Shown: positions 16,788 to 46,103 of the stretch, piece after piece
Layout of the letters: the number at the start of each line of letters is the position of its first letter
Numbering within the stretch: the first letter of the stretch is position 1
From: Yuukianura sp. NJ FZ-2021
Lineage: Eukaryota
DNA: 64,000 bases
Direction of reading: 5' to 3'
Assembly (NCBI GenBank): GCA_046563655.1
Contig: CM102289.1
Span: 1,488,001 to 1,552,000, forward strand
Position numbers and translations under genes: made by a program
Notes under the pieces: generated by a model
Databases searched by the model: none
What the model was told of the DNA's origin: nothing
What the model saw: the letters and a program-made list of their open reading frames with translations, nothing else

Positions 16788-18905
16788 ATGTATTCAGTGT
16801 ATTGTTGGCTAGTGTTGTATACAACTACTGCCACATTCTCCACAGATAGAGCATCACATATTAACTTGAATCCTTGGTTCACTCCGTTTGCTTCAGTGTG
16901 CAATATTTACATAATAAACTTCAACGCCACAAATTTCGAACCACTTGAATTTCCCATCATTACGCAAGATTTGATGTATAAAGAAGGATTCTCTTTTTCA
17001 CGAAACTTAAATCAAACCGGGTTTTATAACACGCTACTTCCGCATGAAAAAATAATAAAACCAGAAATATATTTTAAACTTAAATGTGTCAATTACATTT
17101 TCCTATTTACATCTTTCGGCAAGAAAAAACGAAAAAGACAAACGTACTTTCCCGTACCAACTAACCTACCATTCTGGTCCAGATTTTGGCGTACAGAAAC
17201 CATGGGCATAAGGAAGGACGTTGCATTTACAGAGTTTGTGCGGGACAGATCTGCACTCTTGTCTTTAGTTGCTCCGTACAATCCAAAAATGATAGAACTT
17301 TGGTATAAGTGGACCCGGCCTCACAATGAGGACGAGGTTGGAGTGGCTCACTGGGTAGTCTATGACTTACAAAAGAACAACACAATCGGTAGAACTTGGA
17401 TAATTTGCACTGACTGTACTCCATGTGCACACCCTCTCATACCCTTCAGCTATTCTCAAAACTTATCAGAAATTAAGGCACAGTGGATACCGGTAGATCC
17501 AAAACCAAAATGGCACGTTTACCCCTACATGCCACATAATTTGAACTTCAAGTCTTATAAGTACGAACTTGGCACTTGGGAACACATTGTACTCAAAGCA
17601 ATTACTAACAAGAGCGTTGATTGGAGCAAAGAAGGAGCATGCAATGGAGAGCTATTCCCAACCGTTGAGTTTGGTTCGCAAGACTACTCTGTTTTGGAAA
17701 CTCATCACCTCAAATTTCAATTCTTAACATGTGATGGTCTACTGCAAGAAGTTTCAGATATGAACAGTTTGATTTCTGCATTTGACTTGGAAAGTTGGGT
17801 CATTTTGGTTGCGGCTCTCTTTGCTTTGGGCATAATGGCTAATGTTGTGTTAAAAGTAAAAGGTAAAAAATGCGATGGATTTGTAACAGTGTACTCTGCA
17901 CTACTAGAACATAGTTGGGATTCTGCAACCAATCCTCACGGGTTAAGTGCCATGTACTGGGTATCTAGCAGTATGTTGCTAACTTTAATTGTGGTTACCA
18001 ATGGTTACAAAAGTTTCTTTACCGCCGATATAACTTCACCAAGAAATCCAGAACTTATAACTCACTTTGGTCAAGTGATGGATAAAAACTTGACTATTTA
18101 TGTCCGACCAGGTCATGGTATATATGGATTCAGGAAAAGCGACTGGAATGCAACTGTAAAATGGATGGAAAACGTGCATAAAGTGACTGACAAACAACGA
18201 GAAAAGCAAGGACTACCAAAAAAAGACTGGAGAACACAAGATGAAAGAAGCTACTACTACCCAGACAGCCCTCCCGAATTTGTATTCAAATTTATACACT
18301 CTCTAATAAAAACTTTTGGAATTTCTATGTCAAACTGGAGACAATTTGTAAGAAATAGCAACACCACTATAATACCAGCAACACTAAAACTGGTAATAGA
18401 CAAGTTGTTTGTGCGATGGGATGAATTTGAATCTAAAAACATAAGTGATGGAGATGTATTGACGCCATTGGTCAAAGACTGTAAAACAGCCTACGCTGAT
18501 TGGTCAGATAAAATCGACCACCAGTATAGACTTTGGAAGATCTCAGGAGATAAAGGCAGTGAAAGTCTTGCAAAAGGAACAGATAGTTTGGGTAACATAA
18601 CTTGTGGATGGAAATTTACCTATGTGACGGATTCAAATATACGGCCAAGATTGAAGCACATGGAACAGGCGGGAATAATTGAATTTTGGAAAAGTTTGGA
18701 TGCAAATTTGAAATTTGAGAAAGAGTTAAGACAAATTCAAGTTGTTAAATCTACAGTAAAAGTTCTTGACCTGTACGATAAAATCAGGGTAGCTTTTTAC
18801 GTGTTTTTGAGTATATTGCCACTACCATTGTTAATTTTTGTTGTTGAGTACATTGTTGCAAATTTGAAGCGAATTCGTTGTACCAAGGTGCTATGTGTTT
18901 TTTAA
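16788..18905 (+). CDS. Divergent ionotropic receptor-like protein, copy 1 (intronless, intact)
   Basis: Signal peptide; FQFLTC..AFD..W + M1; pore YSALLEHS; M3 LIVVTNGYKSFFTADITSP; S2 ending LKHMEQAGIIEFW; M4 VAFYVFLSILPLPLLIFVVEY, matching iGluR/IR topology. First ATG at 16788. Confidence 0.8.
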   Translation: MYSVYCWLVLYTTTATFSTDRASHINLNPWFTPFASVCNIYIINFNATNFEPLEFPIITQDLMYKEGFSFSRNLNQTGFYNTLLPHEKIIKPEIYFKLKCVNYIFLFTSFGKKKRKRQTYFPVPTNLPFWSRFWRTETMGIRKDVAFTEFVRDRSALLSLVAPYNPKMIELWYKWTRPHNEDEVGVAHWVVYDLQKNNTIGRTWIICTDCTPCAHPLIPFSYSQNLSEIKAQWIPVDPKPKWHVYPYMPHNLNFKSYKYELGTWEHIVLKAITNKSVDWSKEGACNGELFPTVEFGSQDYSVLETHHLKFQFLTCDGLLQEVSDMNSLISAFDLESWVILVAALFALGIMANVVLKVKGKKCDGFVTVYSALLEHSWDSATNPHGLSAMYWVSSSMLLTLIVVTNGYKSFFTADITSPRNPELITHFGQVMDKNLTIYVRPGHGIYGFRKSDWNATVKWMENVHKVTDKQREKQGLPKKDWRTQDERSYYYPDSPPEFVFKFIHSLIKTFGISMSNWRQFVRNSNTTIIPATLKLVIDKLFVRWDEFESKNISDGDVLTPLVKDCKTAYADWSDKIDHQYRLWKISGDKGSESLAKGTDSLGNITCGWKFTYVTDSNIRPRLKHMEQAGIIEFWKSLDANLKFEKELRQIQVVKSTVKVLDLYDKIRVAFYVFLSILPLPLLIFVVEYIVANLKRIRCTKVLCVF

Positions 18906-19019
18906 ATGGTTGCTAGAGGATACGCTGCTTTTTTATAGACAAAACATACCCTTCGACATTTTCGGACGTCTTGTTGCATTAAGCCTCAGAAGTAAGCAGC
19001 CCTTTTTTCTTAATATTCT

Positions 19020-19260
19020 TAGTCTTATAAAATATGTATTTGTTTGGTATTAAATTTAATTTTTTTCAAGTGCTTTTAGACACGCCCACCATCATTTTAC
19101 GGAAAATTAGACCATGCAGCAGAGTTAGAAAGCTAGAAACGGTCGTCCGAAATTTCTAGACGGTAGTATTCATTGTTTAAAATTTACTCTCGGTTTCTAT
19201 TGTAGTAAAAATTATAAATAGTTTCAAAATGCTAAAAGTGTAACTTATTAAAACGTTAGC
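19020..19260 (+). promoter_or_regulatory. Conserved IR upstream block type B (also ~21930, ~25750, ~30650)
   Basis: AAGTGCTTTT.GACAC(GCCCA)...AAATTAG...(CGTCAAATCACGCA)...GAAAT.TC..GA precedes copies 2-5. Regulatory role is inferred. Confidence 0.5.
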
Positions 19261-19271
19261 GTAACCTTACC

Positions 19272-21419
19272 ATGTATACTATACTAAATTGCTGCTTAGT
19301 TTTGTACATCGCTATTGTTAAGTTACTTACCACTGACGCTTCACATATAGACTTAAATCCTTGGTTCCGTCCATTTTCTACGGAGTGCAACATTTACGTA
19401 ATAAACTTCAACGCAACAAATTTCGAACCATTTGAATTTCCCATCATTACGCAAGATTTGGTGTATAAAGAAGGAGTTTATTTTCTAGACAATTCAAAAA
19501 GAGACGGTTTCTACAATACGCTACTTCCTCATGAAAAAATAATTGTACCAGATATATATTCTAAATTTAAATGTTTCAACTACATTTTCCTATTTACATC
19601 TTTTGGCAGCAAGAAACTAATGGACGAAATGGATTTTCCTATACCGAAGAACCTACCATTATGGTCCAGACTTTGGCGTAAAGAAGTTATTGACATAGGA
19701 AGTGACTTTGCATTTAGAGAATTTGTACGTGACAGATCCTCAGTTTTCTCTTTAGTTGCTCCCTACAATACAGAAATGATAGAGAGTTGGTACATTCGGC
19801 TCATGAGGATGTCTATCGACTACGACTTAACTGGAATCGCGCAATTCGTAGTCTACGATCTCATAAAGGTTATAGGGTCACACACCTACACAATCACAAG
19901 TACTTGGATTATTTTCATCGACAGTGCTAAATGCGCACACCCTTTGATACCACTGCGTTATTACCGGAATCTATCAAAGATTAAGGCGCAGTGGATACCT
20001 GCAGATTCAAAACTCAAATGGCACGTCCAACCCGAAATGCCACAGAATTTGAAGTTTGCGCCTTACAAGTACAAACTTGGCACTTGGGAACACATTGTGC
20101 TCAAATCGATTACTAACAACAGCATTGATTGGACTACAGTACCACTTTGTCCTGGCTATGAACGACGTCCGTCCGTTGTGTTTGGATCAGCACACTACTC
20201 TGTCTTGGTAACTCATCGCCTCAAATTTCAATTTTTAACTTGTGATGGATTTTTGGGAGAAATTTCAGATTGGAACATTTTGATCTCCCCCTTCGACCTT
20301 AAAACTTGGGCCGTTTTGGTTTTGGCGCTCTTTGCTTTGGGCATAGTGGCTAATGTTGTGTCAAAAGTAAAAGGTAAAAAATGCGACGGATTCATTATAG
20401 TGTACTCTGCAATGCTAGAACACAGTCGACGTTCTGCAACTAATCCTTATAGGTTAAGTGCCATGTACTGGGTAACTAGCAGTATGTTGCTAACTTTAAT
20501 TGTGGTTACCAATGGTTACAAAAGTTTCTTTACCGCCGACATCACTTCACCAAGAAATCCGGAACTTATAACTCACTTTGGTCAAGTGATGGACAAAAAC
20601 TTGACTATTTATGTCCGACCAGAGCATGGTACATTTATATTCAGTTCCGAAGTGTGGAAAGGAAATGTAAAAAGGATGGAAGAAATACATAGAGCACAAG
20701 ACGAACAAAGAGAAAAGCAAGGATTGAAGAAAATAGACCGGAAAACAATAGATGAAAGGAGCTGCCGCTACCCGTCCATCGCTCCTGAATATGTCGACAA
20801 ATTTTTAAAGCCTTCACTTAGAGTTTCTCGAGTAGTACTTGTTTCTAAATGGCGAGAATTTGTAAGAAATTCCAACAGCACTTTAATTCCAGCCACACTA
20901 AAACTAGTTCTAGACAAGCTGTTTGTCCCATGGGATGAATTTTATTCCAAAAACACTAATAAGAGAGATCCATTGACGCCATTGGTCAAAGACTGTAAAA
21001 CAGCGTACGCTGATTGGTCAGATATAATCGACACGCAGTATCGAGTTTGGAAGATCTCAGGAGATACAGGTAGCAAAAGTCTTGCAAAAGGAAGTGATAG
21101 TTTGGGTAACATGACTTATGGATGGAAGTTTACTCATGTCACAGATCCAAATATACGGCCAAGATTGAAGTACGTGGAACAGGCGGGAATAATCGAATTT
21201 TGGAAAAATTTAGACGCCTATTTAAAATTTGAGAAAGAGCTACGGCAAATTCAAGTTTTTAAATCTACTGTAAAAGTTCTTGATCTCAATGACAAAATCA
21301 GAGTACCTTTTCTTGTGTTTTTGAGTTTATCGCAACTACCATTATTACTTTTGGTTGCTGAGTACATTGTTGCAAATTTTAAGCGAATTCGGGTTACTAA
21401 GGTGCTCTGTGTTTTTTAG
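19272..21419 (+). CDS. Divergent IR-like protein, copy 2 (intact, 715 aa)
   Basis: Collinear paralog of copy 1 with the same motifs. Confidence 0.82.
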   Translation: MYTILNCCLVLYIAIVKLLTTDASHIDLNPWFRPFSTECNIYVINFNATNFEPFEFPIITQDLVYKEGVYFLDNSKRDGFYNTLLPHEKIIVPDIYSKFKCFNYIFLFTSFGSKKLMDEMDFPIPKNLPLWSRLWRKEVIDIGSDFAFREFVRDRSSVFSLVAPYNTEMIESWYIRLMRMSIDYDLTGIAQFVVYDLIKVIGSHTYTITSTWIIFIDSAKCAHPLIPLRYYRNLSKIKAQWIPADSKLKWHVQPEMPQNLKFAPYKYKLGTWEHIVLKSITNNSIDWTTVPLCPGYERRPSVVFGSAHYSVLVTHRLKFQFLTCDGFLGEISDWNILISPFDLKTWAVLVLALFALGIVANVVSKVKGKKCDGFIIVYSAMLEHSRRSATNPYRLSAMYWVTSSMLLTLIVVTNGYKSFFTADITSPRNPELITHFGQVMDKNLTIYVRPEHGTFIFSSEVWKGNVKRMEEIHRAQDEQREKQGLKKIDRKTIDERSCRYPSIAPEYVDKFLKPSLRVSRVVLVSKWREFVRNSNSTLIPATLKLVLDKLFVPWDEFYSKNTNKRDPLTPLVKDCKTAYADWSDIIDTQYRVWKISGDTGSKSLAKGSDSLGNMTYGWKFTHVTDPNIRPRLKYVEQAGIIEFWKNLDAYLKFEKELRQIQVFKSTVKVLDLNDKIRVPFLVFLSLSQLPLLLLVAEYIVANFKRIRVTKVLCVF

Positions 21420-22201: not shown

Positions 22202-24816
22202 ATGTATGCCATACTATATTTTTGCTTAGTACAATACACCACTATTAAACTACTTACCACAGAAGCGTCACATATTGACTTAAACCCATGGTTCAGTCCA
22301 TTTGCTTCAGAGTGCAACATTTACGTAATCAACTTCAACACAACAAATTTCGAACCACTAAGATTTCCCATCATTACGCAAGATTTGGTGTATAAAGAAG
22401 GATTATATTTTCCAGACATAACAAATAGAAACAACTACCACGGAAATAAAACCGGTTTTTACAATACGCTACTCCCACATGAAAAAATGATAGAACCAGA
22501 AATATATTCTAAACTTAAATGTTTCAATTACATTTTCCTATTTACATCTTATGGCACATCCAAACTACCATACGACGGGCTCTTTCCGTTCCCAGAAAAC
22601 CTACCTTTCTGGTCCAGACTTTGGCGAAATAAGGCAGTAATGCGCAGAAGAAGTCATGACTTTGCATTTAAAGAATTTGTACTGGACAGATCCGCAATCC
22701 TATCTTTAGTTGCCCCCTTCAATCCGAATATGATAGAACATTGGCGTACAAGGACCGGACATGCTCCGGACTATGACTATGTTGGAATAGCTCACTTGGT
22801 TGTCTATCATCTACAAAAGGTCAAGACATCAATGACCTACATAATCACAGCAAGTTGGATAATTTACCCCGACTGTACTGAGTACAAAGTCATTTTTAAA
22901 CCACTTCATTATTCCCGAAACATATCAAAAATTAAGGCACAGTGGAAAACAGTAAATACTAAGATCATGTGGCACGTTGACCCCTACATGCCGCAAAATT
23001 CGAACTTTGCGCCTTACAAGTACCAACTTGGCACTTGGGAGCACATTGTGCTCAAAACAGTTACTAACAACACCGTTGATTGGACTGAAAAAAGATTGTG
23101 TAGTAATCTACAAGGGCAACGTCCATCCATTTCGTTTGGTTCAAAAGACTACTCTGTCTTGCAAAGTCATCGCCTCAAATTTCAATTTTTAACTTGTGAT
23201 GGACTTGTGGATGAAGTTTCGGATTTGAACAGTATGGTTTCTGCCTTTGACTTTAAAGGTTGGGTCATTTTGGTTATGGCGCTTTTTGCTTTGGGCGTAA
23301 CGGCTAATGTTGTGTTAAAAGTAAAAGGTAAGAAATGCGACGGATTCATTACAGTGTACTCTGCATTGCTAGAACACAGTTGGAATTCTGCAACTAATCC
23401 TCATGGGTTAAGTGCCATGTACTGGGTAACTACCAGTATGTTGCTCACTCTAATTGTGGTTACCAATGGTTACAAAAGTTTTTTTACCGCCGACATAATT
23501 TCACCAAGAAATCCGAGCCATGCTAGCGCAGTGGTATGAGTCTCTATTCTGCCATCTGCCTGTCTGTGAGATCGAGTCCTGTCGGTCACTCGCAATAAAA
23601 AAAGTGAATGAAAATTTGCCTACGCGCATAAGGAATTTGCCATTTCCTTATTCCCTTTCCATTTCATTCCGAGATGCTGATGAGTCTGTTCCTTGAGGTT
23701 GGTGAGCTGTAAACTCACCGTAAAATCAAGCAGCCGACCTGCCTTTCTCATCAGCATATGTAACGTAACTGTAAAGTAACGTCCCGAGTTGTCTTGCTTA
23801 TCAACTTTGTATTAGCGTTTTTCCGATGTGGTTTTCCTAATACCTAGAGTTACCTTCTCTAGCCAAATGGAAAGATAGCAAGACAACTCAACAACGCGAA
23901 GTAGTGTAAGGCCCCGTTCTAGGGGTGCTACCTCTCGTACCCGTTCAAAAAAAAAAAAAAAAAAAATCCGGAACTTATAACTAACTTTGGTCAAGTGTTG
24001 GATAAAAACTTGACGATTTATGTCCGACCAGGTTATGGTATATCTGAATTCAGGAAAGAAGAAGCAAAAAGGAAGGAAAAATTGAATAGAATGAAAGACG
24101 AACCAAATGGACTCAAGAAATTTGGTCGGGGAAAAACAATGGATGAACGGAGCAGCCAATACCCTTCGGATGGCCGTCCTGAATTTTTCTACAAATTTGT
24201 AGACCCTCTAATACATGGTTTGGGGATTTCTGTGATATTCTGGAGAACGTTTATCAGAAATAGCAACACCACTGTAATTCCAGCAACACTAAAACTTGTA
24301 ACACCAAACTTGTTTGTGCCATGGGATGAATTTGAATATAAAAATATCAGTGATTATGATCCCTTGACGCCATTGGTCAAAGATTGTAAAACGGCGTATG
24401 CTGATTGGTCAAATGTAATCGACCTTCAATATCGACTTTGGAAGATCTCAGGAGATACAGGTAGCAACAGTCTTGCAAAAGGAACGGATAGTTTGGGCAA
24501 CATAACTTATGGATGGAGGTTTACTTACGTCACAGATCCAAATATACGGCCAAGATTGAAGTACATGGAACACGCTGGAATAATTGAATTTTGGAAAAAC
24601 TTGGATGCAAATTTGAAATTTTTGAAACAGCTACGACAAATTCAAGTTGTTAAATCTACTACTGTAAAAGTGCTCGATCTGTATGATAAAATCAGGGTAG
24701 CATTTTTTGTGTTTTTGAGTTTGTTGCCACTACCGTTATTAATTTTTGTTGTTGAATACATTGTTGCAAATTTTAAGCGAACTCGTGCTACTAAGGTGCC
24801 CTTTGTTTTTAAATAG
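22202..24816 (+). pseudogene. Divergent IR-like copy 3, split by a SINE just after M3
   Basis: ORF reads to ...SPRNP then into the SINE; resumes as PELITNFGQVLDKNL at ~23968. Removing the insert restores an open frame. Confidence 0.88.
23516..23963 (+). mobile_element. tRNA-derived SINE, ~450 bp
   Basis: A box TAGCGCAGTGG (23524-23534), B-box-like GATCGAGTCC (23570-23579), poly(A) 23947-23966, TSD AAATCCG (23509-23515 and 23964-23970); paralogs show the empty site AGAAATCCGGAACTT. Confidence 0.9.
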
Positions 24817-25357: not shown

Positions 25358-25560
25358 ATGTCAAGATTTGTGAACGTACATAAATTTAAAAAAATTAGGA
25401 ACTGACGCAGTTCGGTTTGACTTGAATCAATGGTTTAGCCCATTTACTTCAGAGTGTAACATTTACGTGATAAATTTCAACGCAACAGATTACAACCATT
25501 AAAATTTCCCATAATTACTCAAGATTTAGTATATAAAACAGGATACAGTACTCTTTTCAA
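25358..25560 (+). pseudogene. 5' fragment of an IR-like gene (copy 6-8 subtype)
   Basis: TTTGACTTGAATCAATGGTTTAGCCCATTTACTTCAGAGTGTAACATTTACG...CAAGATTTAGTATATAAA matches the FDLNPWF..ECNIY..QDLVYK N-terminus; frameshifted and truncated. Confidence 0.8.
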
Positions 25561-26916
25561 TACAACCAATAAAGCTTTCACAAATTTTTTATTTGTATTT
25601 TAAGCAATTTCAGGTAGCCATATTTCAACTTTTCTCAATTTAGAAAAAATTTCATTTGTAATCAATTGTTTTAATGACAAAACTTTTTCCTTCCAATATA
25701 TTAAGTCGCAGATCGATAGCTCCATTTTTTGTTTTATTTTCTCGCTTTGTAAAACATGCTTCGGTTTTGACAACAATTCAATTTTCTCAAGTGCTTTTCG
25801 ACACTTCAGACAATAGAGACAAATTAGATTCGTCAAATCACGCAACAGCAAACCAAAAAAATTAAAAACGATGGTTTGAAATTTCCAGACGGTATTGTTC
25901 ATAGTTCGGAATTCAGTGTGTAGGGTTTTGGAATAGAAAACTTTGAAAATATTTTTACAATATTTTGGTCCAAAAATACAACTTAATAAAACAGCCCCTT
26001 AATTTTTCGTCAGCAACCATGTATATTCAATGTTGTTCCTTAGTTTTGTATACCGCTATTTGTAAGCTACTTACCATTAAAGCATCACATATAGACTTAA
26101 ATCCATGGTTCAGTCCATTTGCTTCAGTGTGCAACATTTACGTAATCAACCTCAACGCAACAAATTTCGAACCACTGGAATTCCCCATTCTTACACAAGA
26201 TTTAGTATATAAAGAAGGACTATATTTTCAATTCAACACAACAAGAGATGGTTTCTACAACACGCTACTTCCGCATGAAAAAATAATAGAACCAGATATA
26301 TACTCAAAACTTAAATGTTTCAATTACATTTTCCTATTTACATCTTTTGGCACAACGAAACTACCAAACGCCATGGACTTCCCCGTACCAAGTAACTTAC
26401 CATTTTGGTCCAGACTTTGGCGAAAAGCTGAAGTTATGCAGAGAAGAGGTTTTGACTTTGCATTTAAAGAATTTGTACTGGACAGATCCGCTTTCCTTTC
26501 TTTAGTTGCTCCCTACAATGCAGAAATTATAGAAAGTTGGTACATTCGTATCATGAGGATGCCTTTGGACTACGACTACGTTGGAATCGCGCAATTCGTA
26601 GTCTATGATCTTGTAAAGGTCAAGAGGTCACCCAGCTACAAAATCACAAAAACTTGGATACTTTGCCTCGACTGTGCTGAATGCGCACATCCTCTGTGAC
26701 GGCGTAGTATTTTCCCCGCCGCCTGAGGATTAGCAGGGCACGCGCCGCGCATCAGAGGAGGAGAAGAGCAGCAGAGCCACGAGGCAGGAGACCACATCGC
26801 ACAGCACACTTTAGTTTTTAGTTTCATTTTAGATCTTTATTCGAGAATAAAGATCAGTCTCTCTTTGATCACACACGGAGCGGTCACTTCCAGGTTCTTT
26901 CTTTGGTTGACGCGGA

Positions 26917-27001
26917 GGTCAACTTCACATTGGCGACCTAGTGACAGGTCAACTTCACATTGGCGACCTAGTGACAGGTCAACTTCACATTGGCGACCGT
27001 G
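26917..27001 (+). repeat. 30-bp tandem repeat made of LTR end plus PBS (GGTCAACTTCACATTGGCGACCTAGTGACA x~2.8)
   Basis: Directly visible; ~1.4 units also end the 3' LTR. Confidence 0.9.
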
Positions 27002-28075
27002 CAGTCTTACCTCCAACCATGCCGTTTCCAATAGGCAGGCACAGGTCAAGGATCAAGACATCGAGGTCAAGATCTGCAGAACATCATTAACAGAAGACAC
27101 TAAACTTAAACCGGATTGGTACGTATAATTAAGTAGTAAGTAAGTAGGACGCAGCGATACTGGCAGCGTCTCAGCGCAGCAATCGTTAAGTTTTGCGCGT
27201 AATGTCAGGTTTAAATTGAGATTCGTGACCTATGACATGCACATGTGAGGCTAAATCATTCTTATCTACCTTTTTCCTGTAAAACAGTAAAATATCAATG
27301 TGAAACAATAAGATTGGCCTATGACATGTTTAGTGCAATGCCATACGTTACTCCCATGATCGTTTTTGCAAAGTAGAGTAACGAAATGACCTAAAGAAGT
27401 AGTTTAACGTAAAGTATAACAAAATGGCGTCGTGAGCATGCAGAGTCAGGTTATCAGCATTAGTTTCAGTCAGTAGTGAATCGAGGTCACAGGAAATAGC
27501 AGATTAGTAAAAGTAATTCAAGCAAAGCAGAATCTATGAAACCAGATTAAAATTCTCTCCGACTTGCATTTCTAAAGTTTGTATAGAACCAGTTTATGAT
27601 AGTTATTGCACAGTAAAGTAAATCATTGACATAAGAGACGCAACGTAAAGTAAGTTGCAGTCTCGCATCTTATCTTGTGGACATGGATAGTAATTCATTA
27701 AAAAAACTAGAGACGCAGCGTAGATTAGGCAGTCGTCTCTACGTTTAGGTTGCAGTAAGGCATAAATCTAAAGTTTGTTCACTGATCGGAAGTTATCACT
27801 TTGTTTTTCAAGTTTTTTCGAATTGAATGGTTACTTAAAGAAAGATTATAAAGTAAATTGAGAGTTAAACAGTAAATCTGTAAAAGACAAGAATCTAAAG
27901 TTATCATGTTTGAGACGCAACGTAGAATAAGTAGACGTCTCTGTGACTTATTCCTTATAGTTCATAGTTTGTGTTAGTTAGTAAGAAAGATGGGACGACG
28001 CGAGTGGCGACGACCCACGAAATTTTGTAAATTTGTAACAGTTAAGTTACTTTATAAGGCATAGAAGTTGCCCAA

Positions 28076-28332
28076 AAGAAATGTTTAAAGAAAAAAAGCT
28101 AGAATTAGAGCTTAAAGAAATGTTTAGAGAAAAAGCTAGAATCAGAGCTTAAAGAAAAGAAAAGATGAGTTTAATAGTTGAATAGTTGAATCCCTTGACA
28201 TTGAGAGTCATTAGGACAGAGTCAGAGACAGAGTCAAAGACATAGTCAGAGACCTAATGTAAAGAGACATTGAGAGTCATTAGGACAGAGTCAAAGGCAG
28301 AGTCATAGACATAGTCAGAGACCTAATGTAAG
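28076..28332. repeat. Two internal tandem duplications (~40 bp and ~70 bp) in the LTR element
   Basis: AAATGTTTA.AGAAAAAGCTAGAAT.AGAGCTTAAAG x2; GACATTGAGAGTCATTAGGACAGAGTCA...GACATAGTCAGAGACCTAATGTAA x2. Confidence 0.8.
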
Positions 28333-33617: not shown

Positions 33618-35786
33618 ATGTCCACGTTTGCGTTTTGCCTAGTGTTGTACATAAATTTTCAACAATTTGGAACTACAGCAGTTGAATTTGACTTAAACCC
33701 ATGGTTTGCGCCTTTTATTTCAGAGTGTAACATTTATGTGATAAATTACAATGCAACAGATTTCAAACCACCAAAATTTCCCATAATTGCACAAGATTTG
33801 GTGTACAAAGAAAGATTCAATTTCATCCTCAACCTGAACAATGCTGGTTTCTACAGCACTCCGTCTCCACAAGAAAAAATGCTTGAACCAGAAATACATT
33901 TTAGATTCAAATGTTTCAATTATGTTTTTCTTTTTGCATCTTTTGGATCGAAGAAACTAGCAGACAAGTTCCACTTTCCCCTACCAAAAAACTTACCTTT
34001 TTGGTTCAGACTTTGGCGGAAACAATATCAACACAAATATGAGTTTCCGCAGAAGGAATTTGTGTTGGACAGATCTGCAATCCTGTCTCTCATTGCCCCA
34101 GACAATCCAGAAATGATTGAAACTTGGTACGACCGTACGACACACGTACGTCTGGACTATGAGTTTATAGGTGTTGCTCAATTGGTGATCTATACTTTAG
34201 CTGTAGTCAATGAGTCAAACACTTTACAAATTTCCAAAACTTTGACAGTTTGTCTCTACTGCAACGATTGCGCAATGTCTGTTGTTCCGTATAACCATTC
34301 TCAAAGTTTATCGGAGGCTAAGAAGCAGTGGAATGTGGTAAACCAAATTCAAAAAGCAATGTGGTTCTTTCATGTCGGGACGCTAGGCGGTACCTCAGTG
34401 GTACCAAAATACCTGAACCTGTCACCTCATAAATACAAAGTTGGTACTTGGGAATTCATTCTACTCAAAACAGTCATGACCAACAAAAGTGTAATTTGGG
34501 CACAACAAATAAGTTGTCAAGTAAATCATGAAGGACGTCGTCCATCAGTCATGTTTGGTTCGCAACACTACTCTGTTTTGGAAACAAATCATCTCAAATT
34601 TCAATTTTTAACATGCGATGGCATTTTGGAGGAAATTTCGGATTTCGAAAGTTTGAGTTCTGCATTTGACTTTAAAAGTTGGGTAATTTTGGGTGTGGCG
34701 CTAATTGGTTTGGGCATCACGGCTAATGTTGTGTTAAAAGTAAAAGGTAAAAAATGTGATGGATTTATTACAGTGTACTCTGCACTAGTAGAGCAGAGTT
34801 GGCGTTCTGCAACTAACCCCCACAAATTAAATGCAATGTACTTTGTAACATGTACAATGTTGCTAACTTTAATCGTGGTTACCAATGGTTACAAAAGTTT
34901 CTTTACCGCTGATATAACTTCACCGCATAAACTGAAACTGGTAAGTCTCTACGAGCACTTGATACACAAAAACTTGACTATTTATGTCCGACCTAATGAT
35001 GGTATCAACAATTATAAGTCAGAAGAATGGCGAAACGGAAGAGGAGAAGAAACAGGATTAAAAACACCAGACGATACGAGTCCCAAGTATCCCATTAGTG
35101 TTCCAGACTTTGCTTTTAAATTTGTATTTCCCCTGTCAATGAATTTTGGAAACAGAAAATCATGGAGAAATTTTGTTAGAGATGATAATAGCAGTACCGT
35201 TCCAGCAATTCTTAAAAAAGTTGTCGACAAATTGTACATACCATGGGATGAATTTGTTGGCACAAACATTAGTGATGGAGACGTGTTAACACCATTGGTC
35301 AAAGACTGTAAGGCAGCCTACGCCGATTGGTCAGACAAAATTGACTTGGAGTATCAACTATGGAAAGCTAGTGGAGATACTGGGAGCAAAACACTGGCAA
35401 AAGGAACAGATAGTTTGGGTAACCTAACGTACGGATGGGAATTTACATGTATTACAGATCCAAAAATCCGTCCTGGTTTAATGTCGATGAAAGAGGCGGG
35501 AATTGTAACATTTTGGAAAGAGTTGGATGAGCATTTCAAATTTTTGAGTCATCTGAAGTCGACTCCTATGAAACCAAAATCTGTTGTGAAAGTGCTCACT
35601 TTGCAAGACAAAATTAGTGTAGTATTTTTTGTATTCCTGAGCTCATCGCTACCTTTAGTGCTTTGTTTTGTACTTGAGCATGTAGTGAAAAATTGGCACA
35701 AAATACATCTTAAGACGATTTTGAAAAAAGGTATGGCCACAATAGTATCTATTCGTGTTTATATAACACCGCTAAAATGTTTTTAA
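33618..35786 (+). CDS. Divergent IR-like protein, copy 6 (intact)
   Basis: ATG at 33618 (MSTFAFCLVLY); second subtype (FDLNPWF, KLKLV after M3). Confidence 0.82.
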   Translation: MSTFAFCLVLYINFQQFGTTAVEFDLNPWFAPFISECNIYVINYNATDFKPPKFPIIAQDLVYKERFNFILNLNNAGFYSTPSPQEKMLEPEIHFRFKCFNYVFLFASFGSKKLADKFHFPLPKNLPFWFRLWRKQYQHKYEFPQKEFVLDRSAILSLIAPDNPEMIETWYDRTTHVRLDYEFIGVAQLVIYTLAVVNESNTLQISKTLTVCLYCNDCAMSVVPYNHSQSLSEAKKQWNVVNQIQKAMWFFHVGTLGGTSVVPKYLNLSPHKYKVGTWEFILLKTVMTNKSVIWAQQISCQVNHEGRRPSVMFGSQHYSVLETNHLKFQFLTCDGILEEISDFESLSSAFDFKSWVILGVALIGLGITANVVLKVKGKKCDGFITVYSALVEQSWRSATNPHKLNAMYFVTCTMLLTLIVVTNGYKSFFTADITSPHKLKLVSLYEHLIHKNLTIYVRPNDGINNYKSEEWRNGRGEETGLKTPDDTSPKYPISVPDFAFKFVFPLSMNFGNRKSWRNFVRDDNSSTVPAILKKVVDKLYIPWDEFVGTNISDGDVLTPLVKDCKAAYADWSDKIDLEYQLWKASGDTGSKTLAKGTDSLGNLTYGWEFTCITDPKIRPGLMSMKEAGIVTFWKELDEHFKFLSHLKSTPMKPKSVVKVLTLQDKISVVFFVFLSSSLPLVLCFVLEHVVKNWHKIHLKTILKKGMATIVSIRVYITPLKCF

Positions 35787-35974
35787 GGATTGGAAGAAAA
35801 TTGATAGATTTTAAATAGATTAACTTTATAAGTGCAAATAAAATTTTATCTTAAAGAAAGTTAAATTTTAAATTTAAAGTGACGAAATGTGTTAAGTAAA
35901 CCTAAAAGTGTACAGTTACATGTTTCGATGGTTTTGGTTTTGACAGTAGAATTTTCTGAAAAATGATCCTGAAA

Positions 35975-36235
35975 TTATGGAAAAAATTAGATGAGCATTT
36001 CTAATTTTTGAATCAGCTGAGTTCGACTCCTTGGCAGCAAAATTCTGTTGTGAAAGTCTTTACTCTGGATGACAGAAATTAGTGTAACAATTTTTGTGTT
36101 TATCCAACTACCAATATTTATCTTTGGAATTGAGCACTTAGTAAAAATTGGAACAGAAAAGAGGTGTTTTTCAAAAACATTGTCGGTAAAATAATATGTA
36201 TTCGTGTTTACATAAACCTACTAAAAATTTTTAGT
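35975..36235 (+). pseudogene. 3' fragment of an IR-like gene (S2 end plus M4)
   Basis: TGGAAAAAATTAGATGAGCATTTCTAATTTTTGAATCAGCTG...TCTGTTGTGAAAGTC closely matches copy 8 at ~45726-45805; contains stop and indels. Confidence 0.75.
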
Positions 36236-36472
36236 AGTTATAAGAATTGCAAAAATAATGTTAAGTAGATTCAATTTCGTAAGTACTTATTCAACACATA
36301 AAATTTTACTTTTAAGAAAATTAAGTTTGTGAAGTCACGAAATTGTAGCTCACGAAAACTTCGAAGTTTGCAGTTGCTTATTCTCATTTGCTTTTGTCTG
36401 GCTGATGGAATTTTGAATTTTGTTTGTTCAAAGGGTTCATAAAAATTTTAGTCCACATCCTCAGTATCAGTC

Positions 36473-38740
36473 ATGTACACGTTTGGGTTTTGCCTAGTGT
36501 TCTACATAAATTTTGAACAATTTGGAACTGCAGCATTTGAATTTGACTTGAATCCATGGTTTGCGCCTTTTGCTTCAGAGTGTAACATTTACGTGATAAA
36601 TTTCAATGCAACAGATTTCGAACCACCAAAATTTCCGTTAATTACCCAGGATTTGGTGTACAAAGACGGGTTCAGTTTCATTCACAACCGAAGCGATGCT
36701 GGTTTCTACAACACTCTGTCTCCACAAGAAAAAATGCTTGAACCACAAATACACTTGAATTTCAAATGTTTCAATTATGTTTTTCTTTTTGCATCATTTG
36801 GAACAAAAAAACTTGCAACGAAGCACGACTTTCCTTTACCACTTAATCTGCTTCTTTGGTCCAGACTTTGGAGAAAAGAATATTATGGTAGAAACGTCCC
36901 GCTAATGGAGTTTTTGTTGGACAAATCTGCAATCCTGTCTCTAATTGCCCCTAACAATCTACAAATGATTCATGACTTTCACGGCCGTACGATGCATGAC
37001 CGTAGTTACTACGAGTTTATAGGTGTTGCTCAATTTGTAGTCTACACTTTAGCGGAGGTCAGTAGGTCAAATAGTTTAAAAATTTTGAAAACCTCGACAG
37101 TTTGTCTCCAATGCAGCGACTGCGGAATGTCTCTCGTGCCGTTTAATCATTCGCAACGTTTAGTTGAGATTAAGAGGCAGTGGAAAGCAATAAATAAAAA
37201 TCAAAACGGAATGTGGTATGTTGACCGATACGGAGGCCATACCCTGGCGGTATCACCGGTAACCAAGGTACCATTAAAACTCTTGCACCTCTCACCACAT
37301 AAATATAGAGTTGGCACTTGGGAATTCATTCTCCTCAAAACAGTTATGACTAACAAAAGTATTATCTGGGCCAGAGACTGCTTTTGTTCTTTGAACGGAT
37401 TTGCGGAGCGTCCATCAGTCAAGTTTGGGTCAGTACATTACTCTGTTTTGGAGATAAATAATCTAAAATTTCAATTTTTAACATGCAATGGCATTCTGGA
37501 GGAAACATCGGATTTGGAAAGTTTATTGAGTTCTGCATTTGACTTTAAAAGTTGGATAATTTTGGGTGTGGCGCTATTTGCTTTGGGCATAACGACTAAT
37601 GTTGTGTTAAAAGTAAAAGGTAAAAAATGTGATGGATTTATTACAGTGTACTCTGCACTGCTAGAACACAGTTGGGATTCTGCAACTAATCCTCATGGGT
37701 TGAGTGCCATGTACTGGGTAACTAGCAGTATGTTGCTCACTTTAATTGTGGTTACCAATGGCTACAAAAGTTTCTTTACCGCTGACATTACTTCACCACG
37801 TAAACTGAAACTGGTCACTCACTATGACCACTTGATTGAGAAAAACTTGACTATTTATGTCCGACCTACCGACGGTATCGATAGTTACAAGGCGGGAGGA
37901 TGGCGATTACACATGCACGATAGAATGGAAGAATACAAAAAATATGAGGAAGATAGACGAAAACTAGGACTGGAAATTGAGGAATGGAAAACAATAGATG
38001 ACAGGAGTCTCCAATACCCCCCTAGGATTCCAGACTTTGCTATTAAATTTGTACAACCATTGATGAAAATATTTGGATATGACATTTACAGCAGGTCATG
38101 GAGAAATTTTGTTAGAAATGACAATAGCACTATTGTTCCTACAATTCTCAAAAAAGTTGTTCACAAATTGTTTGTACCCTGGGATGAATTTGTTGGCACA
38201 AACATTAGTGATGGAGACGTATTAACGCCATTGGTCAAAAACTGTAAGACAGCCTACGCCGATTGGTCAGACAAAATCGACTTGGAGTATCTACTATGGA
38301 AAGCTACTGAAGATACTGGGAGCAAAACACTGGCAAAAGGAACAGATAGTTTGGGTAGCCTAACGTACGGATGGGAATTTGAATATGTAACGGATCCAAA
38401 CATCCGTCCTGGTTTGATTTCGTTGAAAGAGGCAGGAATTATAACATTTTGGAAAGAATTGGATAACCATTTCAAATTTTTGAGTCAGCTGAAGTCGAGT
38501 TCTAGACAACCAGAATCAGTTGTGAAAGTCCTTAATCTGCAGGACAAAATCAGTATAGAATTTGTTCTGTTCCTGGGCTCATCGCAAATTTTAATGTTCC
38601 CTTTTGTGCTTGAGCTTTTAGTTAAAAATTGGCACAAAATACATTTTAAGATGATTTTGAAAAAAGGTGTGGCCACAATCATTTTTGTTTGCGTACACCC
38701 ACTAAAATTTTGTGCATGCAAGGATTGCAAAAGAAATTGA
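36473..38740 (+). CDS. Divergent IR-like protein, copy 7 (intact, 755 aa)
   Basis: Collinear paralog, second subtype. Confidence 0.82.
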   Translation: MYTFGFCLVFYINFEQFGTAAFEFDLNPWFAPFASECNIYVINFNATDFEPPKFPLITQDLVYKDGFSFIHNRSDAGFYNTLSPQEKMLEPQIHLNFKCFNYVFLFASFGTKKLATKHDFPLPLNLLLWSRLWRKEYYGRNVPLMEFLLDKSAILSLIAPNNLQMIHDFHGRTMHDRSYYEFIGVAQFVVYTLAEVSRSNSLKILKTSTVCLQCSDCGMSLVPFNHSQRLVEIKRQWKAINKNQNGMWYVDRYGGHTLAVSPVTKVPLKLLHLSPHKYRVGTWEFILLKTVMTNKSIIWARDCFCSLNGFAERPSVKFGSVHYSVLEINNLKFQFLTCNGILEETSDLESLLSSAFDFKSWIILGVALFALGITTNVVLKVKGKKCDGFITVYSALLEHSWDSATNPHGLSAMYWVTSSMLLTLIVVTNGYKSFFTADITSPRKLKLVTHYDHLIEKNLTIYVRPTDGIDSYKAGGWRLHMHDRMEEYKKYEEDRRKLGLEIEEWKTIDDRSLQYPPRIPDFAIKFVQPLMKIFGYDIYSRSWRNFVRNDNSTIVPTILKKVVHKLFVPWDEFVGTNISDGDVLTPLVKNCKTAYADWSDKIDLEYLLWKATEDTGSKTLAKGTDSLGSLTYGWEFEYVTDPNIRPGLISLKEAGIITFWKELDNHFKFLSQLKSSSRQPESVVKVLNLQDKISIEFVLFLGSSQILMFPFVLELLVKNWHKIHFKMILKKGVATIIFVCVHPLKFCACKDCKRN

Positions 38741-41259: not shown

Positions 41260-41586
41260 CAGGACTTTCGCGATCCTATCCCAGCGATCCTACGATTCCC
41301 GATTTCCGATCCCGGATCGGAGATCACAGTAAGATCGCGAGGTAAGTCCAATTAATTGGAGATCGGGTGCATAAAACCGCAAGATGTTTGTTAATATTTC
41401 GCGACCCCGATACGAATATTAAGAGCATGGGGATCGGAAGCAGGAATCGCCGCATTTTTCAGATCGCCGGTTCAAGATCGCGGGATAGTCGCAAAGAGTG
41501 GGGATCGCCGCCGATAAAAGCGCGGAGTTGCCTCGAAGGATCGGGGATCGGGTGTTTGGGAGCGCAGCCGAAGTGCGGAACTCTGA
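41260..41586. mobile_element. GATC/CGATCC-rich degenerate MITE-like insert just upstream of the P450 ATG
   Basis: GC-rich island with CGATCC motifs in the left part and GGATCG in the right part; weak CAG.../...CTG termini. Confidence 0.45.
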
Positions 41587-42030
41587 CGCATGATTCTTCA
41601 AAACGAAAACCGGTTTTTAAATTACAGATACATAAAAAGTTGCATTGGTTTTTCAAATATCTGGTCGAAGGAAACGGAAGAGTATACGCAAGTATCGAAA
41701 GAGACGGTTAAACCAATTAGGCAGATCGTGGAGACCGGCGGTAAAGCGACGACTGGAGGTAACTAGGTCACACTATTCAAGAAGGTTCGAAATAAATTCG
41801 TGGTCGGAATCGGAATCGGCCGGAGAAATTTACGACTTCTTCCGATCACTTCAATCTTTCATATTAAAATTCTTTCAAATTTTAAAATTTATTGAAGTTT
41901 GAAAATCTACTAAATACTAAATCGAAGTTTTTTGAAACATTCAAAAAGCGTCGTCGTCAATTTTAAACAATTGAATGTCAAAGATCTCTTACTTCACAAC
42001 GCCCACACTGGTAACATTTTGACTCTATTA

Positions 42031-43068: not shown

Positions 43069-43750
43069 TATAGTATTAAAATGTACAATCAGAAAGTTCT
43101 TTTTCAAAAAAGAAATTGGGCATAACTTATATTCATTTGTGTTTGCTTGCATAAATCAACTAAAACTTGTTAATTTAAAAACTGCATAAATCATGCTTTA
43201 AATATATTCAATCTTGTAAACGTTTATTAAATACGGTGCAATTTTACTTTTAAAAAAATTTAAGAGTGTTTCAGACTTTGCCGTTAGATTTGTACTTCTT
43301 CTGGTAATAGTTTCCGGGCACAAGAATTTGAAATTTTGTTGGAAATAATCAACAGGTTTTGGAAATTAAATTTTTAACCAATTTTAGTTTAATGATTTTT
43401 CCGCGATATACGTCAATTATTAAAAATTGCCACAGAAGGAGATGTTTTTCATAAAAAAAAATGTTTGGTAAAATAATATCTTCCGTGTCTAAATAATTAT
43501 AAGAATTTCAAAAGTTATATTTTAAATAGATTCAATTTCGTAAGAGTTTATTAAACACGAACAAAATTTTAGTTTTAAAAGAATTAAATTTGTCAAGTCA
43601 CGAAATTTTAACTCCCGAAAACTTCGCCGTTTACAGTTGCTTATTCTCATTCCTTTTTGTCTGGCTGATGGAGTTTGGGTTTTTTTGTTCAAATTTTCAG
43701 TGTTTCATAAAAATTTTAATCCACAAACTGTCACATTCTAAATACCCGTC

Positions 43751-46103
43751 ATGTCCGCGTTTGTGTTTTGCCTAGTGTTTTGCATAAACTTTGAACAATT
43801 TGGAACTGCAGCATTTGAATTTGACTTGAACCCATGGTTTGCACCTTTCACTTCAGAGTGTAACATTTACATTATAAATTTCAATGCAACAGATTTCAAA
43901 CCACCACAATTCCCAATAATTACTCAAGATTTGGTGCTCAAGGAAGGATTCAGTTTTTATCTGAACCGCCCTCATTTTGGTTTCTATAACACTCTACTTC
44001 CACAAGAAAAAATGCTTGAACCAGCAATACATTTCAAATTCAAATGTTTCAATTATGTTTTTCTTTTTGCCTCTTTTGGAACAAATGAGCTACTCATCTC
44101 AGACCACTTTCCTTTACCCCACAATCTACCTCATTGGTGCAAACTTTGGCGAAGGAAATACTATGGCGTAAGCCAGTTTCCGCTAAGAGAATTTTTGTTT
44201 GACAAATCTGCAATCCTGTCTCTCGTTGCCCCTGACAATCTACAAATCATTCATGACTGGCACGCACGTACGATAGTCAACCCTATTGACTATGAGTCTA
44301 TAGGTGTTGCTCAACTGGTAATCTATACTTTAGAAGAGGTCAAAAGACCAAATACTTTAAAAGTTTTGAAAACGTCAACAGTTTGTCTCCAATGCAAAGA
44401 CTGCGCAATCTCTGTGGTTTCTTATAATCATTCTCAAAATTTAGCTGAGGTTAAGAAGCAGTGGAAGGTTGTAAATGAGATTCAAATGGGAATGTGGTAT
44501 TTCGACCGGATGGGATGGGATACCTTAGCGGTATTGCCAAGAACCGGGGTACCAAAACACTTGTACCTGTCACCTCTTAAATACAGAGTTGGTACATGGG
44601 AATTCATTCTACTCAAAACAGTTATGACTAACAAAAGTATCGTCTGGGCCACAAGAATTTCTTGTTCTTTTAGCAAAATTGAAGATCGTCCATCGGTCAA
44701 GTTTGGGTCAGTACACTACTCTGTTTTGGAGATAAATCATCTGAAATTTCAATTTTTAACATGCAATGGCGTTCTGGGGGAAATTTCGGATTTGCAAAGT
44801 TTGATTTCTGCCTTTGACTTTAAAGGTTGGGCCGTTTTGGTTGTGGCGCTACTTGGTTTGGGCGTAACGGCTAATGTTGTGTTAAAAGTAAAAGGTAAAA
44901 AATGTGATGGATTTGTAACAGTGTACTCTGCACTGCTAGAACACAGTTGGGAATTCTGCAACTAATCCTCATGGGTTAAGTGCCATGTACTGGGTAACTA
45001 GCAGTATGTTGCTCACTTTAATTGTGGTTACCAATGGTTACAAAAGCTTCTTTACTGCTGACATAACTTCACCGCGTAAACTGAAACTGGTCACTCACTA
45101 TGACCACTTGATTGAGAAAAACTTGACTATATATGTCCGACCTACCGACGGTATCGATAGTTACAAGGCGGGAGGATGGCGATTACACATGCACGATAGA
45201 ATGGAAGAATACAAAAAATATGTGGAAGATAGACGAAAACTAGGACTGGAAATTGAGGAATGGAAAACAATAGATGACAGGAGTCTCCAATTCCCCCCTA
45301 GGATTCCAGACTTTGCTATTAAATTTGTACAACCATTGATGAAAATATTTGGATATGACATTTACAGCAGGTCATGGAGAAATTTTGTTAGAAATGACAA
45401 TAGCACTATTGTTCCTACAATTCTCAAAAAAGTTGTTCACAAATTGTTTGTACCCTGGGATGAATTTGTTGGCACAAACGTTAGTGATGGAGACGTATTA
45501 ACGCCATTGGTCAAAAACTGTAAGACAGCCTATGCCGATTGGTCAGATAAAATTGACTTGGAGTATCGACTTTGGAAAGTTACTGAAGACACTGGCAGCA
45601 AAACTCTGGTAAAAGGAACAGATAGTTTGGGTAACCTAACGTACGGATGGGAATTTGACTATGTTACTGATCCAAACATACGTCCAGGTTTAATTTCGTT
45701 GAAAGAGGCAGGAATTATAACATTTTGGAAAAAATTGGATGAGCATTTCATATTTTTGAGTCAGCTAAAATCGACTCCTAAACAAAATTCTGTTGTAAAA
45801 GTCCTTACCCTTGAGGACAAAATTAGGGTTGCATTTTTTGTGTTCCTGAGCTTTTTGCTACTACCAATATTTAGCTTCGGAATTGAGTATGTAGTAAAAA
45901 GTTGGCACAAAATACATTTTAAGATCATGTTGAAAAAACTTGATCTTCAAATAATATCTTCTGTGAAAGTACTTGCCTTGGGAGATAAAATTTGGGCAAC
46001 GTTAATTATGTGGCTACGTTTCGTACTACTGTCAGTCCTAACATTTATTGGCGAATACATTTCAAAAATCAGGCACAAAATATGCTCCTGCCTGCTCTCG
46101 TGA
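43751..46103 (+). CDS. Divergent IR-like copy 8, with a 1-nt frameshift at ~44950 and a duplicated M4 segment
   Basis: Two ORFs (43751-44965, 44985-46103); AGTTGGGAATTCT versus AGTTGGGATTCT in paralogs. Confidence 0.78.

Follow-up and report, generated by a model that had tools for sequence, protein, structure and literature searches.

How does a tandem array of receptor genes come to consist of copies whose closest relative changes from one segment of the gene to the next? The question is raised by a stretch of 64,000 nucleotides from Yuukianura sp. NJ FZ-2021 (GenBank assembly GCA_046563655.1, contig CM102289.1, positions 1,488,001 to 1,552,000 of the forward strand), which is referred to here as the window and is numbered from its first letter. 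From 16788 to 46103 its plus strand carries eight intronless paralogues, c1 to c8, arranged head to tail and encoding proteins of about 705-780 amino acids (aa) that resemble ionotropic receptors (IRs). In IRs and in the ionotropic glutamate receptors (iGluRs) the ligand-binding clamshell is formed by two segments, S1 and S2, which lie before membrane segment M1 and after membrane segment M3. A first-pass annotation of this DNA proposed that recombination in the conserved M1-M3 block re-pairs the S1 and S2 lobes and so provides a combinatorial route to new chemoreceptor specificities. We consider it highly probable that this array of divergent IRs evolves by non-allelic homologous recombination, comprising both gene conversion and unequal crossing-over among its own copies; the role assigned to the M1-M3 block fares less well.

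The eight coding sequences were aligned with MAFFT after removal of the insertions in c3 and c4, and pairwise identity was followed in sliding windows; column numbers below refer to this alignment. Copies c1-c5 form a subfamily A (79-84% nucleotide identity) and c6-c8 a subfamily B (79-86%), with 65-67% identity between the two. The nearest relative of a copy changes along the gene (Table 1), as the annotation had claimed, and all four of the segmental similarities that it listed are present in the sequence. The most complex case is c4, for which the nearest relative is in turn c2, c1 or c5, c3 and again c1. The post-M3 segment common to c3 and c4 was found as described. The other three similarities need amendment in their details. 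The N-terminal stretch common to c2 and c4 (IESWYIR.MRM..DYD..GIAQFVVYDL) lies in the N-terminal domain (NTD) and not in S1. The C-terminus and 3' flank common to c1 and c4 are real, and a quoted 22-nt 3' motif occurs at exactly two sites, 18903 and 30537, which are the stops of c1 and c4; the terminal peptide KVLCVF, however, is not exclusive to this pair, as it also ends c2. Finally, c7 and c8 do differ in their N-halves (875 of 1076 aligned columns from the ATG to M1 are identical, or 81%) and are nearly the same after M3, with 559 of 571 positions identical between 37710-38280 and 44986-45556 and 454 of 459 in the core; the c8 coordinates had been one base out of register (44985 for 44986). 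Only three B-type N-halves exist, all of them differing by at least 14%.

Statistical tests show that recombination between the copies is real. The pairwise homoplasy index (PHI) test gave P=0.001 both for c1-c5 and for all eight copies, and P=0.023 for c1, c2, c3 and c5, with c4 left out. Maximum-likelihood trees of individual segments conflict: columns 420-780 join c2 and c4 (support 70/81), columns 1392-1920 in S2 join c3 and c4 (100/100), and columns 1920-2290 join c1 with c4 (83/88) and c6 with c7 (91/92). Approximately unbiased (AU) tests rejected six of nine alternative clades, namely (c2,c4) and (c1,c4) for the S2 segment (P=6e-6 and P=1.3e-4), (c3,c4) and (c2,c4) for the C segment (P=0.009 and P=0.0045), and (c1,c4) and (c6,c7) for the N2 segment (P=0.0087 and P=0.016). 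Segments of one gene have, in other words, significantly different nearest paralogues. A strict run test of the GENECONV type, which together with segment trees had been suggested as a check, identified two tracts that are significant across the array, a run of 38 polymorphic sites between c3 and c4 and one of 36 sites between c7 and c8, each with a global P=0.0005. For older tracts a mismatch-tolerant score was used in place of the strict test. By this measure the tails of c1 and c4 (columns 1903-2362) share a tract with a global P=0.0125 within subfamily A and P=0.001 among all eight copies, and c1 and c5 share columns 708-774 with P=0.042.

To locate the breakpoints, all 10,395 eight-taxon topologies were scored by parsimony at 717 informative sites and the alignment was segmented by dynamic programming. 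With a penalty of 8 this procedure places five breakpoints, at columns ~161, ~696, ~791, ~1452 and ~1890. The gain of 43 steps may be compared with a maximum of 13 among 200 permutations of the sites; none of the 200 reached the observed gain, and only 3 of the 200 yielded five breakpoints. Three breakpoints are left with a penalty of 10 (~160, ~1139 and ~1890). Breakpoints obtained with lower penalties were dropped, as a penalty of 4 gave 14 against a permuted mean of 12.8, and a penalty of 6 gave 6 against a permuted mean of 4.0 and maximum of 6; the discarded low-penalty set included two inside the M1-M3 block. Two of the five retained breakpoints lie in the NTD, one at the border of the NTD and S1, one at or in the M1-M3 block and one within S2. 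The block is poor in informative sites, and the breakpoint there is placed only roughly.

The two strong events are two-ended patches of ~400-460 nt. The patch common to c7 and c8 is the more recent: these copies differ at 5 of 459 positions in the tract, compared with 14 of 249 in the pore-encoding cassette just upstream, and differences become more frequent again from column ~1858. The likeness of c3 and c4 extends from column ~1456 to ~1890 and is broken locally at two places, where differences cluster at indels of c4. Both patches span the whole of a hypervariable stretch of S2 at columns ~1440-1700, in the segment designated here as S2a, where the background identity in subfamily A is 0.52-0.74. 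They fade 5' in the M1-M3 block and its extension (background 0.82-0.98) and 3' in the TPLVKDCKTAYADWS block (0.79-0.94). Since the ends of the patches fall in conserved blocks, the pattern fits homology-dependent conversion, in which exchange starts and resolves only where the copies are alike and the divergent piece between moves whole. In subfamily A the ratio of nonsynonymous to synonymous divergence (dN/dS) is highest in S2a, at 0.60-0.94 compared with 0.15-0.88, and mostly below 0.5, in other regions. An alignment of profile hidden Markov models (HMMs) to GluA2 shows an invariant KNLTIYVRP followed by a variable loop, the start of S2a, that is aligned with GluA2 ...YGTLDSGSTKEFF (the YGTLDSGST segment), a loop which we take to contact the agonist.

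These data allow an evaluation of the original proposal, that the M1-M3 block is a recombination pivot which re-pairs S1 and S2 and is maintained for working receptors with new specificities. Part of it stands, for in two independent pairs, c3 with c4 and c7 with c8, a common S2a is found beside clearly differing NTD and S1 sequences, and both strong tracts have their 5' ends at the conserved block, or within it, directly after M3. It is also favored by the position of the highest subfamily-A dN/dS in S2a, by the alignment of the start of S2a with the presumed agonist loop, and by the intact frame of c7 and the loss of frame in c8 through no more than a single base. However, the events are double-ended patches and not single crossovers in the pore block, and the predicted clustering of breakpoints at the cassette was not observed; only one of five is at its 3' edge and another splits S2. 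Moreover, c4 is dead, c3 is interrupted and c8 is frameshifted. With one partner of each strong exchange disrupted, a gain of working specificities is not demonstrated, and because an exchange overwrites one variant, fewer distinct S2a segments remain after it, as may be seen from c7 and c8, which now carry the same one. An adaptive shuffling of S1 and S2 is thus not supported by the positions of the breakpoints, and it is weakened further by the disruption of c3, c4 and c8 and by the loss of S2a variants. We regard the pivot as improbable.

The M1-pore-M3 cassette itself, taken by the annotation as merely constant, is homogenised at synonymous sites. In columns 1140-1392 the two subfamilies are 92% identical at codon positions 1 and 2 and 81% identical at third positions, compared with 49-60% at third positions elsewhere. 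In six pairs from subfamily A the synonymous divergence (dS) in M1-M3 is 0.12-0.32, as against 0.38-0.72 in the NTD and S1, and the lowered dS is confined to the homogenised block. Further, the cassettes of c7 and c8 are closer to that of c5, the closest A-type cassette, than to that of c6 in their own subfamily. For c7 the differences number 13 of 249 from c5 and 33 of 249 from c6, and in S1 there are 94 differences in 294 sites from c5 and 85 in 321 from c6 (Fisher P=0.0046). In the mismatch-tolerant scan, tracts from subfamily A to c7 and c8 are restricted to columns ~1100-1382 (global P=0.001). Judged from the sequence, these patterns are best read as the probable result of repeated conversion, including at least one transfer between the subfamilies, on top of purifying selection.

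A priori, the likeness of the cassettes might require no homogenisation, if it were due to strong purifying selection on the channel, perhaps aided by a locally reduced mutation rate or by constraint on codons. The pore is encoded here, and no part of the family profile is more conserved; nonsynonymous divergence (dN) in the block is low (0.05-0.11), and the split between subfamilies A and B is kept in the cassette tree. Such selection does not readily account for the third positions, nor for the uneven shrinkage of distances, from 0.265 to 0.133 for c7-c6 but from 0.342 to 0.088 between subfamily A and c7. Nor was any reason found at the RNA level, as a scan of the cassette against Rfam gave no match and its folding showed no excess of structure (z=0.21). 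We give selection without homogenisation little chance.

Unequal exchange is evident at a larger scale, in a duplicated block that is out of register with the genes (Table 1). The 3' flanks of c1 and c4 are 77% identical over 357 columns, the 5' flanks of c2 and c5 are 76% identical over 346 columns, and the heads of c2 and c5 are homologous as well. It follows from the homology of the c1 and c4 tails and spacers and of the c2 and c5 heads that the duplicated block had one end within a gene and the other within the gene that follows. The region upstream of c1 is of the subfamily-B type, being 68-88% identical to those of c6-c8 and 29-77% identical to those of c2-c5, and the body of c1 is of the A type, so that the promoter region and the gene body have different histories. 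By BLAST, the upstream region of c1 (16438-16592, compared with 33408-33575) is 72-75% identical to those of the B genes c6-c8 and does not resemble those of c2-c5. At least two orphan fragments in the spacers and a second tail on c8 (Table 1) are consistent with out-of-register recombination.

Taken together, the observations suggest how recombination among the copies may have proceeded. Unequal crossing-over, or a duplication of segments not in step with the gene borders, would have made the tail of c1, its spacer and the head of c2 resemble the tail of c4, its spacer and the head of c5. By interlocus gene conversion the whole of S2a (~400-460 nt), whose start is the loop that aligns with the lobe-2 agonist loop of GluA2, would have passed from copy to copy in the pair c3 and c4 and, at a later date, in the pair c7 and c8. 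Strand exchange would have taken place at the ends of the patches, where conserved sequence gives enough identity. Repeated conversion would hold the M1-M3 block (250 nt) close to identity throughout the array, synonymous sites and both subfamilies included, and new pairings of NTD and S1 with S2a would be a by-product of exchange. The molecular mechanism is something that we infer from these patterns, as are the direction in which each tract was transferred and any consequence for ligand specificity.

A more elaborate possibility is that S2a is an exchangeable specificity cassette. In this scheme the M1-M3 block on the 5' side and the TPLVKDCKTAYADWS block on the 3' side, both kept alike by conversion, would serve as homology arms, and any S2a of the array, those of pseudogenes such as c3, c4 and c8 included, could be copied into a working neighbor. 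If true, the S2a cassette would be a germline combinatorial source of chemoreceptor specificities, with a logic like that of the pseudogene-templated diversification of immune or surface-antigen genes. We think this decidedly unlikely.

Table 1. Coordinates of the gene copies, exchanged tracts and other features of the array. Positions are those of the window unless alignment columns or residues of c1 are specified.
Feature	Position	Strand	Remarks
c1	16788..18905	+	intact, single-exon, 705 aa, subfamily A
c2	19272..21419	+	intact, 715 aa, subfamily A; c4 nearest in columns 420-720 (= c2 19671-19950)
c3	22202..24816	+	subfamily A; 455-bp SINE-like (short interspersed element-like) poly-A insertion 23516-23970
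c4	26019..30539	+	subfamily A; pseudogene; most mosaic of the eight copies
c5	30910..33060	+	intact, 716 aa, subfamily A
c6	33618..35786	+	intact, subfamily B; cassette most divergent
c7	36473..38740	+	intact, 755 aa, subfamily B
c8	43751..46103	+	subfamily B; frame broken by 1-nt insertion near 44952
Likeness of c2 and c4	columns 420-720		81-84% nucleotide identity; most other subfamily-A pairs 58-75%
Likeness of c1, c4 and c5	columns 660-780		83-87% identity
Likeness of c3 and c4	columns 1380-1920		89-96% identity; other A pairs 55-78% in columns 1440-1620
Likeness of c1 and c4	columns 1920-2280		91-95% identity
Likeness of c7 and c8	columns 1200-1800		95-100% identity
Recent S2a exchange tract, c7/c8	c7 37799..38257, c8 45075-45533	+	454/459 identical; 36-site run, global P=0.0005
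Older S2a exchange tract, c3/c4	c3 24035..24431, c4 29755-30160	+	run tests; (c3,c4) 100/100 in S2 tree
Duplicated block out of register with genes	18539..19255 (c1 tail and c1-c2 spacer), 30173-30889 (c4 tail and c4-c5 spacer)	+	tract columns 1903-2362, global P=0.001
M1-pore-M3 cassette, c5	31963..32211	+	~250 nt
Cassette equivalents, subfamily A	c1 17802-18050, c2 20313-20561, c3 23267-23515, c4 29440-29690	+	
Cassette equivalents, subfamily B	c6 34686-34934, c7 37559-37807, c8 44834-45083	+	
Orphan N-terminal fragment (further copy)	25377..25591	+	upstream of c4; matches c7 aa 11-82
Orphan M4/C-terminal remnant	35966..36259	+	between c6 and c7; 33% identity to c7 aa 656-755
Second, old M4-like segment	45990-46103	+	fused to c8 tail
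c1 NTD	residues 1-237		from model
c1 S1	residues 238-333		from model
c1 M1	residues 334-357		from model
c1 pore region	residues 358-386		from model
c1 M3	residues 387-416		from model
c1 S2	residues 417-650		from model
c1 pre-M4 and M4	residues 651-704		from model

Five copies (c1, c2, c5, c6 and c7) have intact reading frames and three (c3, c4 and c8) are disrupted. The insertion in c3 ends in a long poly-A tail, its target is duplicated over a short length, and ARAGORN found no tRNA-like head in it; with these 455 bp removed the frame is open without an internal stop. It is located at column 1391/1392, the 3' end of the M1-M3 block, and the tract common to c3 and c4 begins 0-65 nt downstream of this site. 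The insertion in c4 is 2375 bp long (26696-29070), is bounded at both ends by the 5-bp duplication CCTCT, and is one across which the frame continues. The depth of contigs over it is 2-4 times that of the adjoining bins, which identifies it as a repeated element, and it contains an open reading frame (ORF), 26727-27128, in which a short peptide is repeated in tandem. In addition, c4 has four frameshifting indels, near 29196, 29574, 29853 and 29942. The disruption of c8 consists, in the assembly sequence, of one extra base inside the pore block. This insertion and the 2-nt insertion of c4 at 29574 are no more than ~20 alignment columns apart, in the pore-loop region of the cassette. We also considered whether the insertions mark the boundaries of tracts. 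The c2-c4 tract stops ~15-20 nt from the c4 insertion (column 715/716), yet the c1/c5-like tract crosses that site, and the idea was rejected.

The window holds a few other features near the array. ORFs resembling cytochrome P450, as judged from their translations, are present ahead of it at 15597-16094 (+) and between c7 and c8 at 39623-41258 (-). An ORF at 46837-47310, right after the array, has a translation resembling the start of a secreted protein of laminin-N-terminal-like type.

What kind of receptor does the array encode? Searches with single sequences gave little, as phmmer found no match for c1 among the sequences of the Protein Data Bank (PDB) and a word-indexed search of 5.8 billion proteins yielded none at E<=0.001 among 5047 candidates. 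A profile of the five intact copies was more productive, retrieving 177 proteins at E<=0.001 from 1.84 billion representatives (best 5.9e-26); the names of five relatives that were looked up were 'hypothetical protein' or blank. PF00060 is detected below threshold in 8 of 28 distant relatives scanned, at 16.6-25.6 bits against a cut-off of 30.8. When a family profile of 55 sequences was compared with PDB sequences, GluA2 was matched over M1-pore-M3 and M4 with E 1.5e-12, and the best 60 of 233 chains at E<=1 were all glutamate receptors. The similarity of the channel region to the iGluR superfamily is accordingly significant. An AlphaFold model of c1, built on the 55-sequence alignment, has a mean predicted local distance difference test score (pLDDT) of 75 and a predicted template-modelling score (pTM) of 0.65. 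With this model, all matches listed by Foldseek are ionotropic glutamate receptors (best E 3.6e-8), with TM-scores that are low (0.19-0.39), as is expected of a multi-domain chain. In VIA-align, residues ~238-703 of the model match chains of GluA ligand-binding and transmembrane domains with Z 10.0-10.9, with residues 238-703 aligned to GluA2 391-825, and isolated S1S2 crystal structures (1vso, 5ehs, 4qf9, 6fqh and others) are matched with Z 10.0-10.2 and a root-mean-square deviation of 3.3-3.8 A over 202-211 residues. In the model, therefore, S1 and S2 form a bilobed ligand-binding domain (LBD) like that of periplasmic binding proteins. Helices are predicted at residues 334-357, 364-372, 387-416 and 665-704, with parts of the LBD to either side, and the order of domains is S1, M1, pore loop, M3, S2 and M4. 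The layout that had been assumed for these genes, with S1 before M1 and S2 after M3, is thus borne out by the model, the structure matches and the profile match to GluA2.

Judged by profile and model, then, c1-c8 encode receptors of the iGluR/IR fold, and the label 'IR-like' holds as far as fold and superfamily are concerned. In a language-model atlas, which we use only as a lead, the nearest clusters are unnamed arthropod ones (0.96-0.98), followed by arthropod IR clusters (0.90-0.93). Divergent IRs have an iGluR-type S1, ion channel and S2 and are encoded by single-exon genes in tandem arrays, which, according to the available part of Croset et al. 2010 (PMC2924276), are said to grow by non-allelic homologous recombination. 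The uninterrupted ORFs of 705-769 aa in head-to-tail order found here show the same single-exon, tandem-array trait. The best explanation is that the array belongs to a clade of arthropod ionotropic receptors that is lineage-specific and very divergent and has the layout NTD, S1, M1, pore loop, M3, S2 and M4. The function of its proteins is presumably chemosensory.

The dependence of these conclusions on the assembly can be gauged from four DNA sequencing runs that hold part of the region as short contigs; three runs come from one sample and the fourth (X4) from another study with another organism label. Contigs with no differences cover 44041-44894 and 45017-45479 of c8, and a 538-nt contig of X4, 45185-45722, crosses the 3' end of the c7-c8 tract, also with no differences. 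No listed contig of the four runs bridges the M1-M3 cassette, where the contigs of all four break (44895-45016 is uncovered in c8). One 891-nt contig (record 17 of run X3) joins 33687-33904 of c6 to 44038-44688 of c8, with 33 shared letters at the joint. This contig must be an artefact of the graph or else come from a structural variant that lacks c7 and the P450 gene, and it was treated as an artefact.

Misassembly might in principle have produced the mosaic, by the chimeric joining or the collapse of copies at places where all of them are nearly identical. The contigs of every run break in the cassette, so that none confirms the junctions there; the c6-c8 join (33904 to 44038) shows that short-read graphs go wrong here; and the frameshift in c8 is a single base. 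Against this, the older tracts (c3 with c4, c1 with c4, c2 with c4) are 77-96% and not 100% identical, which the swapping of segments cannot create; with only three B-type N-halves, at least 14% apart, a common S2a of ~99% identity needs real exchange or hidden copies; the c4 insertion has its clean 5-bp duplication and a frame that continues across it; and the contigs at 44041-44894, 45017-45479 and 45185-45722, the last from an independent study, match without a difference. As a general cause of the mosaic, misassembly is unlikely, although it is possible at the 5' junctions, and we hold an explanation of the pattern by assembly artefact to be very unlikely.

The runs also yield observations on the spacer between c7 and c8. 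Contigs of all four join 42025 directly to 43071, so that those samples lack the 1045-bp piece 42026-43070; no other depth bin comes near the value over this piece (3476 in run X1), and a high-copy repeat whose insertion is polymorphic is thereby suggested. The P450-like gene at 39471-40505 differs from run contigs at 12-27 letters per 380-626 nt (~2-5%), whereas several IR segments show no differences. The contrast suggests that the haplotype or strain is a divergent one at the P450 gene.

Several results weigh against the conclusion that non-allelic recombination among IR copies shapes the array. First, the tests are not uniformly positive. Three of the nine clades in the AU tests were not rejected, (c3,c4) for N2 (P=0.117), (c7,c8) for C (P=0.092) and (c6,c7) for S2 (P=0.155), and the clades tested were picked after the trees had been seen. 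The strict run test was significant array-wide for only 2 of 13 pairs and missed the older tracts. The N-terminal similarity of c2 and c4, with its tree support of only 70/81, fell short of significance (P<0.05) in the strict run test and in the mismatch-tolerant scan alike. Second, in the cassette tree a branch (89/94) still separates c6, c7 and c8 from the other copies. As this tree keeps the branch between A and B, transfer across subfamilies is indicated by distances and not by topology, and low dS in the cassette could come partly from constraint at the nucleotide level. Third, no read or contig spans the M1-M3 block, so that for the 5' junctions the assembly is the sole source, and the direction of every transfer would be readable only with orthologous arrays. 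Lastly, a Pfam scan matched none of the five intact copies at E<=1, and the gathering score of PF00060 (Lig_chan) was not reached, which bears on their identity as IRs.

Comparison with known systems places recombination in this array in context. The iGluRs of the AMPA and kainate types (structures of GluA2, GluK1 and Drosophila KaiR1D) have the same LBD clamshell and M1-P-M3-M4 fold, and their SYTANLAAF region aligns with M3 of the array proteins. The latter differ in having only 9-13% sequence identity, a degenerate M3 motif (NGYKSFFTADIT), a charged hypervariable stretch of ~60 residues after the first strand of S2, and no full-size amino-terminal domain. In vertebrate protocadherin clusters, concerted evolution is restricted to a region, and a conserved module is kept alike by conversion while the sensor parts remain diverse. 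That is a different protein family, and in the present array the sensor segment too moves as a patch. The arthropod divergent IRs described in the available part of PMC2924276 have the same S1, channel and S2 layout and single-exon tandem arrays, and are lineage-specific and fast-evolving; c1-c8 are much further from the Pfam channel model and have an NTD of ~237 aa of unassigned fold. In that part of the text the terms 'gene conversion' and 'chimeric' do not occur, and in the accessible portion of a review (PMC11526382) 'gene conversion' occurs in the reference list only. Tracts of the GENECONV type between Drosophila IR paralogues have been reported, with an effect judged to be small (Almeida et al. 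2014, PMC4122928). The type of test is the same as ours, and as far as the available text of that study goes the tracts were not mapped to receptor domains. Unlike that case, the present one includes a pseudogene that is a four-way mosaic, an LBD segment exchanged twice and a pore block homogenised across subfamilies. A search of the literature for domain-resolved mosaics of IRs or a homogenised pore block found no report; supplementary table S8 of PMC4122928 lay outside that search.

As a whole, the mosaic is a new and well-documented case, from a highly divergent clade of IRs, of a process already known, and as the evidence stands that process is the expected behavior of tandem duplicates. 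It is also a clean, domain-resolved example, in which the same ligand-binding segment has moved twice between neighbors and the channel core has been kept uniform by what is probably repeated copying. For IR arrays of this kind, whole-gene trees, orthology calls and birth-death rates would be wrong, and the locus draws attention to a very divergent clade of IRs that is invisible to Pfam. If exchange of S2a were shown to alter ligand tuning, the array would offer a testable path from recombination to new chemosensory specificities.

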